Source of the DNA: Candidatus Gastranaerophilales bacterium
GTDB lineage: Bacteria; Cyanobacteriota; Vampirovibrionia; Gastranaerophilales; Gastranaerophilaceae
Direction: 5' to 3'
Assembly (NCBI GenBank): GCA_910587175.1
Contig: CAJULH010000001.1
Coordinates: 971 to 64,970, forward strand
Length of the DNA: 64,000 bases
Shown: one piece after another, positions 5,018-55,690 of the stretch
Position numbering within the stretch: position 1 is the first letter of the stretch
How the letters are laid out: each line of letters starts with the position of its first letter
Made by a program: the position numbers and the translations under genes
Notes under the pieces: model-generated
The model's input: the letters and a program-made list of their open reading frames with translations, nothing else
Database searches by the model: none
Told to the model about the DNA's origin: nothing

Positions 5018-6133
5018 TTGAAAAAGGTCTTTATAATAACAGGAGAAGTTTCAGGAGACAAGCACGCAAGCGGAGTTGTGCGTGAACTTTTGCAGCTGAA
5101 TTCCGATATTCAAATTGAAGCTGTCGGCGGCGAAAACCTTCAAAAAGCAGGGGTGAAACTTTTCCACAACCACGATAAAATGGGCGCTGTGGGGCTTACA
5201 CCTTCTGTTATATTAAATCATTTTTTCCTTGGGTTAAAGATTGTAAACTATCTAAAAAACACCTTTAAGCCTGATTTAGTGCTCCTTGTGGACTACGGCG
5301 CTTTTAACCTTTCTGTTTCAAAACACCTGAAAAAAGCCGGAATTAAAACCTTTTATTTCATTCCGCCCCAAATCTGGGCATCAAGGAAGTGGCGCCTGAA
5401 AACAATGAAAAAGAATATTGACAAAGTTTTAACCATCTTCCCGTTCGAAGGAAAAATGTACGATGAAGCAGGAATTAAAAACACATACGTCGGGCACCCG
5501 CTTGTAAAAGAGCTGCCGTCTCCTGCAGACAAATCCGAATTTTTCAAAAGACACAATCTTAATCCAAATAAAAAACTTGTTTCCGTATTTCCGGGCTCCA
5601 GAATGTTTGAAATCCGGTTCCTTTTTAATATTTTTCAGCGTGCCGCAAAAATAATTGAAAAGAAAAGAAATGATGTACAATTTGTAGTATCGTATGCTGC
5701 AAATCTGCCTGACAATGCCTTTAAGACAGATTTAAAAACAATAAAGGGCGAAAACCACGCACTTTTATCGGTTTCAGATGCTCTTATCTTAGCCTCAGGC
5801 ACCGTTGCACTTGAAGCAGCGCTATATAAAACGCCTATGATTATTGCATACAAAGGACCGCTCTTTTTCTATCTTGTATATCTTCTTGTGCGGTCTATTA
5901 AAAAAGCCTGCCTTGTAAATATTATTACGGGAAAAGACATTGTGCCTGAATTTTTAATGTTTGATGCAAAGGCAGAAAAAATTGCAGAAAAAATAATCAG
6001 CATCCTTGACAGCGAAAAAGAAAAAATGCTGCAATTGAGCGGTTTTAGGGAAACAGAAGAGCTTCTGTCACAAAAACACTGCGTAGAAGAGGCTGCAAAA
6101 ATAATTAATGAAGAACTAATAAAAGAAGGATAG
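5018..6133 (+). CDS. lpxB: Lipid-A-disaccharide synthase
   Basis: TTG start, 371 aa. N-terminal ITGEVSGDKHAS, central YFIPPQIWASRKWR and SGTVALEAALYKTPMIIAYK are LpxB hallmarks. Confidence 0.9.
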   Translation: MKKVFIITGEVSGDKHASGVVRELLQLNSDIQIEAVGGENLQKAGVKLFHNHDKMGAVGLTPSVILNHFFLGLKIVNYLKNTFKPDLVLLVDYGAFNLSVSKHLKKAGIKTFYFIPPQIWASRKWRLKTMKKNIDKVLTIFPFEGKMYDEAGIKNTYVGHPLVKELPSPADKSEFFKRHNLNPNKKLVSVFPGSRMFEIRFLFNIFQRAAKIIEKKRNDVQFVVSYAANLPDNAFKTDLKTIKGENHALLSVSDALILASGTVALEAALYKTPMIIAYKGPLFFYLVYLLVRSIKKACLVNIITGKDIVPEFLMFDAKAEKIAEKIISILDSEKEKMLQLSGFRETEELLSQKHCVEEAAKIINEELIKEG

Positions 6134-29369: not shown

Positions 29370-29930
29370 ATGAAAGAAACTTTATATTCGACAAAATTTT
29401 TAAATTTGGTTGCATCAAAACGCAAAGGCAAGGCGGATTGGGTTTATGCACACAGACCAAACGCAAAAAATGTTGTAATTATAGTACCTGTTATACACAA
29501 GACTGACGCTGATTATACGATGTTTTTAACCACAAAAAGACCGCCTTTAATTGAAGAATACGGGGATGTCACTTGTCTTGAATTTCCGGCAGGACTTGTA
29601 GGGGATGAAAACACGAACGAAACAACAGAAGAAGCACTAAAAAAAGAACTCCTGGAAGAAACAGGATATCTGGCAGAAAAATTTGACATAAAGGCAAAAA
29701 ATCTTGTTACATCAGGCGGTATGACATCTGAAAAATCCACCCTTGCAATAGCAGAAGTTTTTGATACAAAGATAAAGGAAAAACCCGTAGATGACGGCGG
29801 TGTAATTGCGGGAAGAATGGAAGTAAAAATTCAGGACATAGGCAGCTTTCTGGATAAAATGGAAAAAGACGGAATTTTCTTATCTGCCCAAACAATCGCA
29901 GGAGTTTATTATCTTGCAACCCGGAAATAA
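29370..29930 (+). CDS. Nudix hydrolase (ADP-ribose pyrophosphatase-like) with an intact Nudix box
   Basis: GDENTNETTEEALKKELLEETGY fits G-x5-E-x7-[RK]E-U-x-EE-x-G-U. Confidence 0.8.
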   Translation: MKETLYSTKFLNLVASKRKGKADWVYAHRPNAKNVVIIVPVIHKTDADYTMFLTTKRPPLIEEYGDVTCLEFPAGLVGDENTNETTEEALKKELLEETGYLAEKFDIKAKNLVTSGGMTSEKSTLAIAEVFDTKIKEKPVDDGGVIAGRMEVKIQDIGSFLDKMEKDGIFLSAQTIAGVYYLATRK

Positions 29931-30038: not shown

Positions 30039-31850
30039 ATGAAATTAGCCAAAACACAAACGGTGAACGCATTTAACTATGCATTTTTATCAAGAAGAAT
30101 TTTTCCATACATAAAACCTTTGATTCCAAGAATGACTATAGCCTTTGTTCTTGCAATTCCCCTGGGGCTTTTGGACGGCGCAACAGCATTTGCCTTGAAA
30201 CCATATATTGATGTTGTCGTAAACGGTAATCCTATGGTTATAAGGGGTTTTGAACTAACAAGAGATTTGCTTGCAAATTTAATTCCCTGGTTAATTGTCG
30301 CCTTCGCTGTTGTTCAGGGACTTTTAAAGTATACAAACTCATATCTTACAGACTGGCTTTCAAATAAAATTTCAAACTCCATAAAAATTGATTTATTTAA
30401 AAAACTCACAAGCCTTGATTCAAAATTTTTTGATGAAAATTCTTCAGGCATTGTGCTTTCAAGGTTTTTAAACGACCCGGATACAGCATCAAAAAGCGTT
30501 ATAGATTCTATTAAAACCCTTATAACCTGTGCCACTGGAGCTATGGGGCTTATAGCTGTGCTTTTATACAACAGCTGGAAATTGGCGCTCGTTGGTGTTG
30601 TGGTGCTTGTTATAGCATTTCTGCCGGTTGCATTCATCAGAAAGAAAATCAAGCAGGTTTCTAACGACACAATGGCTTTAACCGGCGGTATAAACACAAA
30701 CTTTAATGAAACATACCACGGTAATAAGATTATGACAGGCTACAGCCTGCAAAACAGTTTGAATGCCAAATTTCAGGGACAAATCCATAAATTTTTTGCC
30801 CTTGCAATGTCTTTGACAAAAAGGGTGGGATGGATGTCTCCTATAATGTATTTAATTGCAAGCATCGGCGTTGCAATTGTAATGCTTTTTGGAAACCATT
30901 TAATCATTTCAGGCGAAATGACAACGGGAAGTTTTGCAAGCTTTATAACATCGCTTCTTCTTTTATATAAGCCCATCAAGGATTTAGGGCGCACACTTAC
31001 AAATCTTCAAAATGTTTTTGTTGCAATGAGCAGGGTATTTGAACTTTTTGATTTAACACCTGAAATTGCAGATAAAAAAGATTCAAAAGAACTTTCAAAT
31101 ATAAATGAAAGCATAGATTTTAAAAATGTTTATTTTGAATATGAAGAAAACAATCCTGTGCTTTTTGATATAACCCTTAGTGTCAAAAAGGGGCAGACTA
31201 TTGCCCTTGTAGGGAATTCAGGCGGAGGTAAATCAACCATAGTAAGTCTTTTACCAAGATTTTACGATATAAAATCAGGCAGCATAGAAATTGATGGCAT
31301 TGATATAAGGGACTATTCGCTCTCCTCTTTAAGAGGAAATATTTCAGAGGTATTCCAGGATAATTTCCTTTTTTCAGGCACAATAAGAGAAAATATTTTA
31401 ATGGGAAAACCTGATGCAAATGAAGAAGAATTAAACGAAGTTATAAAAGGAGCACATCTGGACGAGTTTTTGCATACGCTTGAATGCGGAGTAGACACCG
31501 TAATCGGAGAAAGAGGAACAACACTTTCAGGCGGTCAAAGACAAAGAGTAGCTATTGCACGCGCCATGATTAAAGACGCACCAATAATTATTTTGGACGA
31601 GGCAACAAGTGCCCTTGATAATAAATCCGAGGCAATAGTACAAAAGGCACTTGAAAATCTGATGAAAGATAAAACCGTTTTTGTAATTGCACACAGGCTT
31701 TCAACCATTAAAAATGCTGATAAAATTCTTGTTATAAACGATGGAAGACTAACAGAAGAAGGCACACACGAAGAACTTTTAAGAATAGAAAACGGACAGT
31801 ATAAATACTTATACGAAATGCAGTTCCAAAACACGGGCATATCTGCATAA
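30039..31850 (+). CDS. ABC exporter, fused permease/ATPase (MsbA-like lipid exporter family)
   Basis: 603 aa. Six-TM N-terminal half, Walker A GNSGGGKST, signature LSGGQRQR and Walker B IIILDEATSALD. Confidence 0.8.
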   Translation: MKLAKTQTVNAFNYAFLSRRIFPYIKPLIPRMTIAFVLAIPLGLLDGATAFALKPYIDVVVNGNPMVIRGFELTRDLLANLIPWLIVAFAVVQGLLKYTNSYLTDWLSNKISNSIKIDLFKKLTSLDSKFFDENSSGIVLSRFLNDPDTASKSVIDSIKTLITCATGAMGLIAVLLYNSWKLALVGVVVLVIAFLPVAFIRKKIKQVSNDTMALTGGINTNFNETYHGNKIMTGYSLQNSLNAKFQGQIHKFFALAMSLTKRVGWMSPIMYLIASIGVAIVMLFGNHLIISGEMTTGSFASFITSLLLLYKPIKDLGRTLTNLQNVFVAMSRVFELFDLTPEIADKKDSKELSNINESIDFKNVYFEYEENNPVLFDITLSVKKGQTIALVGNSGGGKSTIVSLLPRFYDIKSGSIEIDGIDIRDYSLSSLRGNISEVFQDNFLFSGTIRENILMGKPDANEEELNEVIKGAHLDEFLHTLECGVDTVIGERGTTLSGGQRQRVAIARAMIKDAPIIILDEATSALDNKSEAIVQKALENLMKDKTVFVIAHRLSTIKNADKILVINDGRLTEEGTHEELLRIENGQYKYLYEMQFQNTGISA

Positions 31851-32113
31851 AAATAAGCTCTTTTCCCGGCAATGCAAAACTTTTTTAATACAATTATTTT
31901 AAAGTTTCAGAATTTTTGTTAATTAATGTAACAAAAACACTTAATTTTTGATACAAACTAGCAAAAAGGTTATTTTTTGTTTTTTAATATAGTGTACATA
32001 ATACACATAAAAAACATAGCAGATTTTATAATTTAAGCATTAACAATTTCTTAAAAAAGAAGCAACCCCTTAACAACACAAAATAAATTATACCTAACAC
32101 AAAAACTCAATTT

Positions 32114-32145
32114 AAACGCTTTGAAATCGAAGCGTTTTTTATTTT
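32114..32145 (+). terminator. Orphan intrinsic terminator in the msbA-like/ugd spacer
   Basis: aaaCGCTTTGaaatCGAAGCGttttttatttt: a 7-bp stem including one G-U pair, a 4-nt loop and a long T-run. It lies about 265 nt beyond the stop of the ABC gene. Confidence 0.6.
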
Positions 32146-32229
32146 GCATATAAAATCAGACTGCATCAAAGTATAATGCCGCATGGAAGAATATTTTAAT
32201 GAATGGTTATTTAAAATTACCGGAAAGCC

Positions 32230-33564
32230 CTAGCCTGCAATGCTACTTTTAGCCGGAAGTTCGGGTTTTTTACCTATACAGTAATATTCAAACCCTTTCT
32301 TTGCAAGACGCTTACCATCATATTGGTTTCTGCCGTCAAAAATAACAGCATGCTTCATCAAGTCTTTTATTTTTTCAAAGTTTGGACGCCTGAATTCGTT
32401 CCATTCTGTTAAAAGCAGCATGGCATCAGCATCTTCCAGGGCTTCGTATGATGATTTAGCATAAATGATTCTATCACCGAATATCGGCTCGGCACAATCA
32501 TACGCCTTTGGGTCATAGCCTTGAATTTTTGCCCCTCTTTTTAAGAGTTCGTTTATGATTGTAATAGAGGGCGCTTCACGCATATCATTGGTTTTAGGTT
32601 TAAAAGCAAGCCCCCATACGCCAAATGTTTTGCCTTCAATATCGCTATTATATCTTTCAAGAATTTTATTTATGAAAAGCACCCTCTGCTCTTTATTTGC
32701 TTCATCTGCGGCTTCAAGAAGAGAAGACGAACAGCCGTTTGCTTTTGCTGTTTTAATCATAGCCTTAACATCTTTCGGGAAGCAGCTTCCGCCATACCCA
32801 AGCCCCGCAAATAAAAACTGCGAGCCTATTCTTTTGTCGGAACACATTCCGATACGAACCATTTCAGCATCCGCGCCTACTTTTTCGCAAATGTTCGCAA
32901 TTTCATTCGCATAGGAAATTTTCACAGCCAAAAACGAATTTGCAGCATATTTTGTCATCTCTGCAGATTTAACATCCATAATAATTACAGGGTTTCCAGT
33001 GCGGAGGAACGGAGAATACAATTCCTGCATAATTTCTGTTGCCCTTTGGGAGTTTGAACCAATAACAACTCTGTCAGGTTTTAGAAAATCATCCACAGCA
33101 GCACCCTGCTTTAAGAATTCCGGATTCGAAACAACATCAAATTCAAGGTCTGTTTTTGATTTTATAATCTCTGTAACCTTTTCTGCAGTGCCCACAGGAA
33201 CGGTAGATTTATCAACAATAACCTTGTAACCGTTCATATATTCACCAATGTTTGATGCAACATCATAAACATAAGATAAATCTGCAGAACCGTCCTCTCC
33301 CTGGGGAGTGCCGACTGCAATAAAACATACTGTTGAAATTTCAACAGCCCTTTTAAGATCATTTGTAAAAGTCAGCCTGTTTTCTGAAACATTCACATTT
33401 ATAAGCTCTTCAAGCCCGGGTTCATAGATTGGAACTATACCTTGCGCCAATTTTTCAAGCTTTTTTAAATCTTTATCAACACAAATAACCTCATTTCCCA
33501 TCTCTGCAAGACAGGTGCCGGCAACAAGACCTACATATCCGGTTCCTATAACACAAATTTTCAT
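32230..33564 (-). CDS. ugd: UDP-glucose 6-dehydrogenase
   Basis: 444 aa. [14 protein letters not shown], catalytic GGSCFPKD and the GLAFKP.TDD/MRE block. Confidence 0.9.
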
Positions 33565-54747: not shown

Positions 54748-54872
54748 TTTATTTATTAAGATTTACAACTAAACTTGATTAAAAACTTGTTTTTTGTATC
54801 ATAAATATTAAGGGTCTTCGTAATAAGGTCTTTGGTGTTTGTAAAGAAAAGAAAGTGTTTATTTTAAGATAA

Positions 54873-55562
54873 ATGTCTAAAACTTTTACGGAAACAAAAA
54901 CTCATGAAGTCACGGTCGATGTTGTAATTTTGACCATTGTTGAAAACAAACTTAAGGTGCTTTTGTTAAAAAGGGTAAATGAACCTTTCCGCGGAAGATG
55001 GGCAATACCCGGAGGTTTTATAAGGCTGTCTGAAAACCTTGACGATGCCGCGCTTCGTGTTTTGAAAGAAAAGACAAACGTTCAGAATATTTATCTTGAG
55101 CAGCTCTATACATTTGGCGACCCTTTAAGATACCCGAACACTAGGGTTATTACCTGCGCATACTTTGCGCTGCTTCGGGCTGAAGATATTGACGTAAAAA
55201 TTGTGGATGAATCCCAGGTAGCAGAAATTGAATGGCATTCTGTAGAGAATTTGCCGCCATTAGCGTTTGACCATAAAGAAATCATTGAGTACAGTTTAAA
55301 AAGAACACGTGAACGTTTAGAGCTTTGCCCTATTGCATTTCAGCTGCTTCCGAAAAAATTCACCCTGACAGAATTGCAAAAATCATATGAACTTATCTTA
55401 AAAAAAGATTTAGATAAAAGAAATTTCAGAAAAAAAGTTCTTGCAACAAATATGTTGATTGATTTAAATGAATGCACAAAAACAGGTTCAAAACGCCCTG
55501 CAGCTTTGTATTCTTTTGATGCAATCACCCTTGATTCAAAACGCGGACACTTCTTTTCTTAA
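54873..55562 (+). CDS. NrtR-like protein: Nudix-fold domain with a degenerate Nudix box plus a C-terminal winged-helix domain
   Basis: 229 aa. The box region GFIRLSENLDDAALRVLKEKTNV keeps G-x5-E-x7-R, but REUxEExGU reads RVLKEKTNV (E to V, E to K, G to N). The C-terminal 80 aa (FTLTELQKSYELILKKDLDKRNFRKKV) look like the NrtR wHTH. Confidence 0.7.
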   Translation: MSKTFTETKTHEVTVDVVILTIVENKLKVLLLKRVNEPFRGRWAIPGGFIRLSENLDDAALRVLKEKTNVQNIYLEQLYTFGDPLRYPNTRVITCAYFALLRAEDIDVKIVDESQVAEIEWHSVENLPPLAFDHKEIIEYSLKRTRERLELCPIAFQLLPKKFTLTELQKSYELILKKDLDKRNFRKKVLATNMLIDLNECTKTGSKRPAALYSFDAITLDSKRGHFFS

Positions 55563-55690
55563 ATTCTAGCATGCGCCACGGGTTATAGCAGGCGATGTTT
55601 TGTTATATTTATTTACATTATCTTAAAATTCAGCAATTTATAGAAGGCATATATCCTTTATATAATTAAGAGAGTTTTCAAGAGAAAAAT

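Follow-up and report, generated by a model that had tools for sequence, protein, structure and literature searches.

It has been known since 2008 that the Nudix box of NrtR-type regulators can be dead, and Pfam has a separate domain for this type. According to the founding study of the family, an impaired signature (GX5EX7REUXEEXGU) is typical but not universal, the operator is a palindrome of about 21 bp with a GT-N7-AC core that is located near target promoters, and linkage to NAD genes, or a regulon of such genes, was found in 42 of 62 cases (Rodionov 2008). BtAraR from Bacteroides thetaiotaomicron (BT0354; PDB 5bs6, 5dd4 and 5deq) is an L-arabinose-responsive repressor of this family, and its DNA-contact residues (PMC4666351) served as the reference for our comparison. 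SoNrtR from Shewanella oneidensis (SO1979; PDB 3gz5, 3gz6 and 3gz8) is the ADP-ribose-responsive repressor of prs-nadV. The idea that NrtR regulators are linked to ADP-ribosylation is not new. For the Streptomyces pair nrtR1-draG, a connection with protein ADP-ribosylation was described in 2008 (PMC2330246), and Pseudomonas aeruginosa NrtR represses the type VI secretion system (H1-T6SS) that delivers the NADase Tse6 (PMC8865458). These precedents for an association with ADP-ribosylation or NAD-consuming toxins rest on conserved operons and predicted sites, or on ChIP-seq and EMSA.

The gene analysed here is located on the forward strand at 54873-55562 (ATG at 54873, stop codon ending at 55562) of the window, by which we mean the complete 64-kb stretch of DNA under study. 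It comes from a gut Melainabacterium and codes for a protein of 229 aa that belongs, as an ordinary member, to the established NrtR family of transcription repressors derived from Nudix proteins. More than 7900 homologues were found, with orthologues in about 58 species of the Gastranaerophilales. A Nudix-like effector domain (aa 16-139, 54918-55289; Pfam PF00293, 4.3e-18) is combined with an NrtR-type winged helix-turn-helix domain (wHTH; aa 155-215, 55335-55517), which is matched by PF19368 and by PF21906 (NrtR_WHD), the latter with 5.1e-27 and 94 bits against a cut-off of 27, over the full profile from 1 to 61. For the NCBIfam model NF050029 ('ADPR responsive transcriptional repressor NtrR') the score is 156 bits, with an equivalog cut-off of 400, so that the protein is a family-level relative and not an equivalog. 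Sequence matches in PDB are 5bs6 (1.6e-47, 40% identity over the full length) and 3gz5 (1.9e-32). Over its entire length, the AlphaFold model (pLDDT 70) can be superposed on BtAraR 5bs6 (E 2.5e-22, TM 0.78) and on SoNrtR (TM 0.76-0.77, with 0.76 for the DNA complex 3gz6), and its Nudix part aligns with the Nudix domain of 3gz8. The NrtR architecture that had been assigned in a preliminary description of this locus is thus borne out by both domain profiles and by the superpositions, and profile search and structural model agree on its winged helix at the C-terminus. We consider it likely that the gene codes for a non-catalytic transcription repressor of the NrtR family and that it is a conserved stand-alone chromosomal gene of the Gastranaerophilales.

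The Nudix box, GFIRLSENLDDAALRVLKEKTNV (aa 48-70, 55014-55082), is visibly degenerate. As had been described, G48-x5-E54-x7-R62 is kept and the REUxEExGU segment reads RVLKEKTNV; both can be read directly in the sequence. R62, L64, E66 and V70 remain, and E63, E67 and G69 are replaced by V, K and N, respectively. Across the 58 Gastranaerophilales orthologues these three positions are occupied by V/I63, K/R67 and N/A/D69, while about 20 of 21 distant homologues still have E63, E67 and G69. One alternative is that such a protein works mainly as a Nudix pyrophosphatase, for ADP-ribose or another substrate, and that it has no regulatory role, the C-terminal domain being a vestige. Some sources annotate members of the cluster as 'NUDIX hydrolase' or '8-oxo-dGTP diphosphatase', E54, R62 and E66 are retained, and enzymatic activity is known for related NrtRs whose box is intact, for example NuhA (PMC2330246). 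However, 58 of 58 orthologues have other residues in place of the box glycine and of two of the three glutamates in REUxEE, and comparable changes in the box of Slr1690 lower its kcat to about 1e-4 per second (PMC2330246). Moreover, conservation within the protein is strongest in the wHTH, where every DNA-contact residue is invariant. A purely enzymatic role is therefore extremely unlikely.

In the wHTH, DKRNFRKK is the recognition helix and GSKRPA the wing. Residues K182, R183, N184, K187, K207 and R208 are identical to the six DNA contacts of BtAraR and do not vary among the 58 orthologues. The conservation of the domain, together with its invariant contacts, points to selection for DNA binding, and as all six contacts are identical to those of BtAraR, the same GTGT-N7-ACAC operator core is predicted. 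The corresponding residues of the recognition helix are K, R, N and K in the regulator but G, K, S and R in SoNrtR.

The effector is less certain than the preliminary description had assumed in naming ADP-ribose, since the best structural relative is an arabinose sensor and a contact to ADP-ribose appears to have been lost. With SoNrtR, the regulator shares the architecture, the fold and the degenerate Nudix box, and the phosphate contacts Arg41, Asn43 and Lys76 of SoNrtR correspond to R34, N36 and K67. The equivalent of Lys76 is K or R in the whole clade, and the sugar-binding triad R34/R86/H134 is invariant there. In contrast, the ADP-ribose contact Arg98 of SoNrtR corresponds to Asn89; its equivalent is lost in the Gastranaerophilales clade, where position 89 is variable, and ADP-ribose thus may not be the effector. 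As judged from sequence, this clade has lost the two catalytic glutamates, the box glycine and the Arg98-equivalent contact.

The alternative is a pentose sensor in the manner of AraR or XylR, i.e. a sugar-responsive repressor of the NrtR family as in Bacteroides that does not sense an NAD metabolite. BtAraR is the best match by sequence as well as by structure, the Pfam AraR_C score is 1.4e-14, and the two proteins have in common the two-domain architecture, the impaired Nudix box, the triad Arg34/Arg86/His131, the residues G47/G48/F49/V92/F129 and all of the DNA contacts. The missing Arg98-equivalent fits this alternative as well. But the residues that fill the cleft in BtAraR (Phe36, Leu67, and Gly89 backed by Tyr5) are all different in the regulator, which has N36, K67, N89 and F5. 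As the cleft-filling residues are replaced by N, K and N, the phosphate site of the regulator is not blocked. Residue 36 is polar throughout the clade and never Phe, the residue that blocks this site in BtAraR; polar 36 and K/R67 rather resemble the phosphate contacts of SoNrtR. Unlike BtAraR, which belongs to a different phylum, the regulator has no linkage to arabinose genes: genes for arabinose or xylose utilisation were found beside it in none of about 58 species, and for its nearest phylogenetic relatives outside the order, the regulated genes are pncB, nadA and pncA. We therefore regard a pentose sensor as unlikely. For the NAD-type repressor that we prefer, the effector would, by analogy, most likely be ADP-ribose or a related phospho-ribosyl NAD metabolite.

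Outside the order, the closest relatives form a subfamily with an intact Nudix box (48-55% identity) that occurs in Acidobacteriota, Chloroflexota, Planctomycetota, Omnitrophota and other MAGs. These genes are found within or beside pncB-macro-pncA-nrtR, pncB or nadA loci which carry perfect copies of the palindrome AGTGTA-N5-TACACT. There are 13 such perfect sites in about 22 loci of distant homologues, against a chance expectation of about 0.07 (a uniform-base estimate over all of the approximately 1.2 Mb of regulator-bearing loci). The sites are often arranged in tandem and are located directly upstream of the regulator gene or of pncB and nadA. The subfamily has the same recognition helix as the regulator, and its operator fits the best site in the window. 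It retains E63, E66, E67, G69 and R89 as well as NAD loci with perfect operators, a combination that is not found for the Gastranaerophilales protein; the retained residues suggest that the intact-box relatives are probably bifunctional.

The situation within the Gastranaerophilales is different. SoNrtR adjoins NAD genes but the regulator does not: pncB, nadA, pncA and macro genes are present neither in the window nor at the 58 Gastranaerophilales loci. The true conserved neighbours of the regulator gene are housekeeping genes (dnaX, secG, SLT and minCDE). At the Gastranaerophilales loci, secG is found at position +1 in 39 cases, and position -1 is occupied by SLT in 36 and by dnaX in 13 cases; minCDE, ThiF and SDR genes are further neighbours. 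The regulator would descend from an intact-box subfamily that represses pncB, nadA and pncB-macro-pncA-nrtR operons, and as the linkage to NAD genes has been lost in the Gastranaerophilales, its regulon is expected elsewhere in the genome. In analogy to BtAraR and SoNrtR, a dimer would bind via recognition helix and wing to a palindrome of about 17-21 bp of the AGTGTA-N5-TACACT (GTGT-N7-ACAC) type. A ribose-containing small molecule would bind to the crippled Nudix pocket (R34, R86, H134 and K67), and this binding would change the arrangement of the domains so that the DNA is released.

The region upstream of the regulator gene contains, according to our scan, a promoter-like element TTGATT-16-TATCAT (54775-54802, forward strand), which is kept in the relatives L007, L008 and L017. 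Abutting its -35 box is a weak operator-like 17-mer, AGATTTACAACTAAACT (54759-54775), with 4 mismatches to the 12 defined positions of AGTGTA-N5-TACACT, which is chance level by mismatch count. The positional homologue of this site in L008 and L174 is a perfect palindrome, AGTTTTG-N3-CAAAACT, and better operator-like sites overlap the -35 box of the regulator gene in L001 and L015. The 17-mer may thus be a degenerate autoregulatory site. Another palindrome, TGTTAA-N6-TTAACA, is absent upstream of the regulator and was discarded as an autoregulatory site for the species of the window; it is enriched in another clade.

An imperfect direct repeat had also been reported in this region. Its copies, TAAGGGTCTT (54809-54818) and TAAGGTCTT (54824-54832), are indeed in the sequence (54809-54832, forward strand), where the 5' UTR is predicted to start, and they were missed by a gapless repeat finder. 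As an operator, the repeat TAAGG(G)TCTT was rejected. Only the first copy is kept in the close relatives L007, L017 and L008, and the geometry does not suit the palindrome of a dimeric wHTH. With one copy kept and a position just downstream of the promoter-like element, the repeat is not a conserved operator.

When the window was scanned for GTGT-N7-ACAC, 11 sites were found where about 9 were expected, so that the total is at chance level. Only a pair of sites at 31.9 kb stood out. The first, AATGTAACAAAAACACT (31925-31941), has 2 mismatches, is identical in the sister species L092 and is located there within a conserved island of 29 nt. The second, AGTGTACATAATACACA (31991-32007), has 1 mismatch, and no site in the 64 kb of the window matches better; its counterpart in L092 is AGTGTAATTAATACACA, where the half-sites are kept, the spacer is changed and the flanks have diverged. 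Both sites are located between two convergent 3' ends and neither precedes an annotated gene. Within the window, these two are the only credible candidate targets of the regulator. In a more speculative reading, this orphan lineage of NrtR would no longer act on NAD genes but, by way of the conserved pair of operators, on a small transcript at 31.9 kb that is not annotated. An sRNA at this position could not be established: an Rfam search of 31700-32400 gave no match, the small ORFs in the same region have just 20-46 aa and none is supported, and a terminator-like hairpin (32114-32137; z -3.4 for a stretch of 139 nt) is not conserved in L092.

Downstream of the regulator gene, in the same orientation and separated by 128 nt, a gene for a protein of 543 aa starts with an ATG at 55691 (55691-57322, forward strand), which confirms the arrangement reported before. 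The end coordinate of 55690 that had been given for the regulator takes in this spacer, while the ORF itself ends at 55562. The neighbour has a Gly-rich module at its N-terminus, which is conserved, and at its C-terminus a toxin domain, which varies. Its 152 homologues align in the N-terminal 45-60% alone, and their C-termini match PF03496, PF04607, PF24390 or nothing. This combination is the one expected of polymorphic toxins, and with its constant N-terminus and recombining C-terminal toxins the gene resembles the systems described by Zhang, Aravind and colleagues in 2012 (PMC3482391). A further parallel is a small ORF of 142-145 aa that is found 3' of the toxin gene in L175 and L176 and is a candidate immunity gene. 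In two respects the gene differs from these systems. Its N-terminal module belongs to no Pfam family, and in the window copy, as in that of L174, an immunity ORF would not fit between toxin gene and RR gene; directly downstream of the toxin gene of the window there is none, as its stop (57322) and that of the RR gene (57328) are 5 nt apart. Paralogy with a Gly-rich protein of 483 aa (59929-61380) was considered, but there is no similarity. The GC content in the middle of the toxin gene is 0.44 compared to 0.30-0.38 in the flanks; this is due to the Gly/Ala/Thr-rich module, and compositional evidence for a horizontal origin is weak.

The neighbour had been described as PARP-like. Its C-terminal domain (aa 340-543, 56708-57319, forward strand) is plausibly a PARP-like ADP-ribosyltransferase (ART) of the H-Y-E type. 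The top fold matches in PDB of the model (pLDDT 84) are all ARTs of the DT/PARP type, and two of 12 remote relatives have sub-threshold Pfam PARP matches. On the other hand, all of the fold matches are weak (E 1.6e-3 to 0.1, TM 0.35-0.41). There is no Pfam match for the toxin including this domain, and no PDB match in a sequence search with the domain. The candidate triad is formed by the histidine of SHATS, the tyrosine of GVYF and the glutamate of SNEIAVLD. The histidine is invariant in the family and the tyrosine is present in 7 of 8 aligned sequences, P0241 having Phe. The strand NEIAVLD is conserved as well, but its glutamate not in all relatives.

From this arrangement, a self-contained module of an ADP-ribose-sensing regulator and an ART had been proposed. 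In such a module, the regulator would sense the ADP-ribose produced, or the NAD+ consumed, by the adjacent ART and would control the toxin, either directly or by read-through from an autoregulated promoter. Several observations are in favour. The genes are co-oriented and close, the neighbour is a plausible ART, the slot in L174 is occupied by a toxin with a different ART domain (PF03496, 1.6e-12), and the pair is fixed in all 24 of the long contigs with an identical regulator; nrtR1-draG and the NrtR/H1-T6SS/Tse6 case are precedents. No terminator was detected between the two genes, the sole hairpin after the stop codon of the regulator being insignificant (z 0.39). Given this and the adjacency in three close lineages, co-expression by read-through is possible.

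The spacer and the comparison of genomes argue against such a module. The spacer (55563-55690) harbours a conserved 5' region that belongs to the toxin cassette itself and is common to the window, L174, L175 and the regulator-less L176. It contains a promoter-like element TTTATA-18-TATAAT (55637-55666, forward strand), which includes, at 55661-55666, the TATAAT-like box that had been noticed near 55660. An NrtR operator was not found by scanning the spacer: in the range 55545-55710 the best site before the toxin gene has 6 of 12 mismatches, where the typical chance minimum is 4-5. Nor is the adjacency conserved. The toxin gene is beside the regulator gene in none of 80 GTDB species representatives, and it is missing from the context of orthologues with 97%, 94%, 85%, 84% and 77% identity, the first three of which have the same synteny as the window. 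Adjacency is restricted to the species of the window and two near-identical lineages, L174 and L175. In L175, the slot toxin has a non-ART C-terminal domain with only a weak RelA/SpoT match, so that ART domains occur in two of the three cassettes behind the regulator. In L176, the same cassette with the same 5' region lies beside the RR gene with RuvC upstream, and there is no regulator. The pairing is far younger than the regulator and much less widespread. Thus, apart from these close lineages, orthologues of the two genes are not neighbours in the related genomes compared, which is essentially the outcome that had been named in advance as contrary to the proposed module. Unlike nrtR1-draG and the H1-T6SS case, the pair in the window has an adjacency that varies between strains, and the toxin gene is not preceded by a site. 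We consider it quite unlikely that regulator and ART act as a sense-and-respond pair.

It appears that a toxin cassette carrying a promoter of its own was inserted into a variable slot, which lies between the regulator gene and a convergent cluster of RR, HK and mini-RNase III genes, so that the adjacency is incidental. The ART-like toxin gene would then be a strain-variable insertion and not a conserved functional partner. A broader version of the module seems equally improbable to us. According to this version the regulator, maybe autoregulated at its -35 site, is co-transcribed with whichever toxin occupies the slot, and senses the ADP-ribose or NAD products of resident ART toxins. If it were true, co-transcription would tie toxin expression to the NAD/ADP-ribose state of the cell itself, and it would explain why ART domains of different classes are found in two of three cassettes.

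The pairing as originally proposed therefore carries little weight, the ART-like neighbour being an accident of a variable toxin slot. Of modest value are results that emerged as by-products. One is the palindromic operator AGTGTA-N5-TACACT together with the pncB-macro-pncA-nrtR operon type for an intact-Nudix subfamily of NrtR from several phyla. Another is a family of polymorphic toxins that is specific to these bacteria and has PARP-like, exoenzyme-ART and weakly RelA/SpoT-like heads, the last perhaps of the toxSAS type. Finally, in the Gastranaerophilales, which are uncultured gut bacteria, a derivative of the intact-Nudix subfamily is universally conserved as an orphan, and this derivative appears to have lost catalysis, one ADP-ribose contact and the linkage to NAD genes.

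The regulator gene lies exactly where the preliminary description had placed it, with its ATG at 54873 and its stop codon ending at 55562 on the plus strand (229 aa), and the next gene (543 aa) begins on the same strand at 55691, 128 nt downstream. Residues 16-139 match the Pfam NUDIX family (4.3e-18). The Nudix box region (residues 48-70, GFIRLSENLDDAALRVLKEKTNV) is indeed degenerate: G-x5-E-x7-R is retained and REUxEExGU is reduced to R62, L64, E66 and V70. Residues 155-215 match PF21906, the dedicated NrtR winged-helix domain, with 94 bits (5.1e-27; cut-off 27 bits). By sequence, the nearest solved structures are the Bacteroides thetaiotaomicron arabinose repressor BtAraR (5bs6, 1.6e-47) and the Shewanella oneidensis ADP-ribose repressor SoNrtR (3gz5, 1.9e-32). 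The whole chain of the AlphaFold model (pLDDT 70) can be superposed on 5bs6 (TM 0.78) and on SoNrtR bound to DNA (3gz6, TM 0.76). Profile search and structural model thus agree on the NrtR architecture that had been proposed. The protein scores 156 bits against the 400 required by the NCBIfam equivalog for the ADP-ribose-responsive repressor. A direct repeat at 54809-54832 and a TATAAT box at 55661-55666, both described previously, are present in the sequence.

In BtAraR, arabinose is bound by Arg34, Arg86 and His131, and the nucleotide cleft is filled by Tyr5, Phe36 and Leu67, with Gly89, while SoNrtR binds the ADP-ribose phosphates by Arg41, Asn43, Lys76 and Arg98 (PMC4666351). The regulator retains the sugar triad of BtAraR (R34, R86, H134). 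It resembles SoNrtR at N36 and K67, but has N89 in place of Arg98. Throughout the Gastranaerophilales clade, Lys or Arg is found at position 67 and a polar residue at position 36, and position 89 varies, whereas relatives with an intact Nudix box carry E63, E66, E67 and G69 and an invariant R89. These residue changes suggest that the ancestral-type NrtR was probably bifunctional and that the Gastranaerophilales lineage turned it into a pure sensor. Replacement of the metal-binding Glu67 by Lys or Arg parallels SoNrtR and would favour a phosphorylated ribosyl ligand. ADP-ribose is our best guess for the effector, with the loss of R89 leaving room for other ligands.

DNA binding by BtAraR involves Lys179, Arg180, Asn181, Lys184, Lys204 and Arg205 (PMC4666351). 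The regulator has the same six residues, none of which varies among 58 orthologues, and in distant homologues, too, the recognition helix is unchanged. The loci of these distant homologues contain 13 perfect AGTGTA-N5-TACACT palindromes, where about 0.07 would be expected by chance from a uniform-base estimate over all regulator-bearing loci (ca. 1.2 Mb). The motif shares the GTGT-N7-ACAC core with the BtAraR crystal oligonucleotide. Many perfect sites, some in tandem, are located 34-214 nt upstream of the regulator gene; others occur kilobases away, directly before pncB or nadA. The genes directly downstream of perfect operators code for NAPRTase (pncB) and NadA, and a pncB-macro-pncA-nrtR operon is found in four loci, which argues that the intact-Nudix subfamily is a bona fide NAD-regulon NrtR. 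The homologues with intact boxes and perfect operators (L070, L073, L080 and L085; also L071, L076, L082, L086 and L089) come from Acidobacteriota and other phyla and are encoded in such operons or beside pncB or nadA. A macro-domain gene within an NrtR-controlled NAD-salvage operon provides a neat link to ADP-ribose.

A cluster present on 481 contigs is 100% identical to the regulator protein, whose close relatives carry the labels Candidatus Gastranaerophilales or Melainabacteria. When species-representative genomes were scanned, orthologues with 60-94% identity turned up in about 58 species of Gastranaerophilales, and Acidobacteriota, Chloroflexota, Planctomycetota, Omnitrophota and other MAGs yielded about 22 homologues with 48-55% identity. 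Housekeeping genes make up the conserved neighbourhood: 39 loci have secG directly downstream, 36 have an SLT transglycosylase gene upstream, with minCDE further out, and 13, which represent the clade of the window, have dnaX upstream. The proposed pairing with the PARP-like gene is not conserved. The 97% orthologue is directly followed by a response regulator gene, with nothing in between. The 85% orthologue shares the synteny from dnaX to the response regulator/histidine kinase/mini-RNase III cluster, the regulator stop codon overlapping that of the convergent response regulator gene. In the 94% orthologue HTH_3 and TM2 genes fill the slot, and dnaK or a Fe-hydrogenase cluster follows in the 84% and 77% orthologues. 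When the full-length toxin, its N-terminal module and its C-terminal domain were compared by tblastn to the complete set of 91 regulator-bearing loci, matches were restricted to the species of the window.

The 543-aa toxin has no match in Pfam or NCBIfam. Its 152 homologues have only the N-terminal 45-60% in common, a Gly/Ala-rich module, while their C-termini vary (PF03496 ADP-ribosyltransferase exoenzyme, PF04607 RelA/SpoT, PF24390, or unrecognisable), a combination typical of polymorphic toxins. An exhaustive profile search with the C-terminal domain (residues 340-543) retrieved 12 remote relatives, two of which have sub-threshold Pfam PARP matches. In the alignment, a His (SHATS/YHGT) is found in all members and a Tyr (GVYF/GTYF) in seven of eight, with Phe in P0241. 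The window toxin also has SNEIAVLD, a segment similar to the catalytic strand of PARP1. The model of the domain is confident (pLDDT 84), and its PDB matches are exclusively ADP-ribosyltransferases (ARTs) of the diphtheria-toxin and PARP types, all of them weak (E 1.6e-3 to 0.1, TM 0.35-0.41). The earlier label "PARP-like" is therefore plausible, short of proof, and the protein is probably ART-like.

The slot between the regulator and the response regulator (55563-57327) is a toxin hot spot anchored on the response regulator side. In L174 (regulator about 97% identical) the same N-terminal module is fused to a PF03496 ART (1.6e-12). L175 (regulator 99%) has a split toxin with a third type of C-terminal domain and a 142-aa candidate immunity gene. 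In L176 and L177 this third type (weak RelA_SpoT match) occurs with a 145-aa partner, likewise a candidate immunity gene, next to the response regulator cluster; RuvC is upstream and the regulator is absent. Neither the window copy nor L174 has space for an immunity gene downstream of the toxin. Outside the slot, a family member of 564 aa (P0144 in L172) is located between an OAD_beta gene and a downstream flagellar/T3SS-type ATPase gene. The hot-spot toxin family is specific for Gastranaerophilales, with C-termini that are PARP-like, PF03496 ARTs or weakly RelA/SpoT-like (possibly toxSAS). Four slot variants (window, L174, L175, L176) have the toxin upstream region GGCATATATcCTTTATATA...AAGAGAG in common, which in the window includes a promoter-like TTTATA-18-TATAAT, and thus the cassette carries its own expression signals, independent of the regulator gene. 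No convincing terminator was found between the two genes in the window, so that some read-through into the toxin gene is possible.

The conserved cluster at 57328-59771 (minus strand) codes for a response regulator (two receiver-like regions and a partial GGDEF domain, the latter probably degenerate), a cytoplasmic HisKA/HATPase kinase without obvious sensor domain, and mini-RNase III. Adjoining the latter throughout the clade (syntenic in L001, L007, L008 and L017; 34-72% identity) is a 483-aa Gly/Ala-rich protein (59929-61380, plus strand) without Pfam family and with at most a weak glycine-zipper match. It was considered as a relative of the toxin's Gly-rich module, but the sequences are unrelated.

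The spacer upstream of the toxin contains no operator site, its best match having 6 mismatches at 12 positions, poorer than the typical chance minimum. Upstream of the regulator, the best match (54759-54775) has 4 mismatches. It abuts the -35 box. At this position, L008 and L174 have a perfect palindrome, AGTTTTG-N3-CAAAACT, and L001 and L015 have better sites. Autoregulation via this candidate site is possible. L174 has one copy of the palindrome (AAGTTTTG-TAC-CAAAACTT); in L008-L010, some 100-170 nt upstream of the regulator, a segment of about 38 nt is duplicated in tandem, which results in two copies of AAGTTTTG-TTC-CAAAACTT before the promoter. Another palindrome, TGTTAA-N6-TTAACA, occurs at a fixed position (ca. 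-73 to -107 relative to the start of the regulator; e.g. TGTTAATAAATATTAACA in L044) in the divergent SLT/regulator gap of 24 of 58 species (L027-L069). It is enriched 12-fold, was the top dyad of an unbiased search, and differs by 1 bp in geometry from the AGTGTA-N5-TACACT operator. An N5 variant is found in the window at 31917, overlapping a candidate operator.

This candidate (site 1, 31925-31941, AATGTAACAAAAACACT, 2 mismatches) is 66 nt from site 2 (31991-32007, AGTGTACATAATACACA), which with 1 mismatch is the best in the whole window. Both lie in a 380-nt gap (31851-32229) where the 3' ends of an ABC-transporter gene and a UDP-glucose dehydrogenase gene converge. In a sister species (L092, 4800-5345), whose transporter is 85% identical, a 29-nt conserved island contains site 1 unchanged, and site 2 retains both half-sites with an altered spacer and diverged flanks. 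This conservation pattern argues for a function of the putative pair. The gap contains neither an Rfam family nor a credible ORF, and a hairpin downstream of the pair is not conserved in L092; the pair may control an unannotated small transcript. Just upstream of the transporter gene is a second Nudix gene, small (186 aa) and stand-alone (29370-29930, plus strand; weak PF00293 and Nudt16-like matches). Near the UDP-glucose dehydrogenase 3' end, L092 carries an inserted inverted repeat, long and perfect (GATAATATGCTTTTTAGGAAC ... GTTCCTAAAAAGCATATTATC, ca. 5200-5330), which the window lacks and which may be either MITE-like or a large terminator.

Impaired Nudix boxes in NrtR regulators, variable operators with a GT-N7-AC core, regulons drifting from NAD metabolism, orphans without known regulon, and a tie of nrtR1-draG to protein ADP-ribosylation were described in 2008 (PMC2330246). 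The NrtR of P. aeruginosa is a direct repressor of the H1-T6SS, among whose effectors is the NADase Tse6, as well as of the sRNAs rsmY and rsmZ (PMC8865458). The preliminary description was right in its observations and in the family call, and the neighbour is probably ART-like. The proposed sense-and-respond module of an ADP-ribose-sensing regulator and an ART is without support, as the spacer has no operator and the pairing is not conserved; the regulator belongs to a kind of NrtR already described. We consider it quite probable that it is an orphan, non-catalytic NrtR-family repressor, which would stand only incidentally beside a strain-variable polymorphic-toxin cassette.
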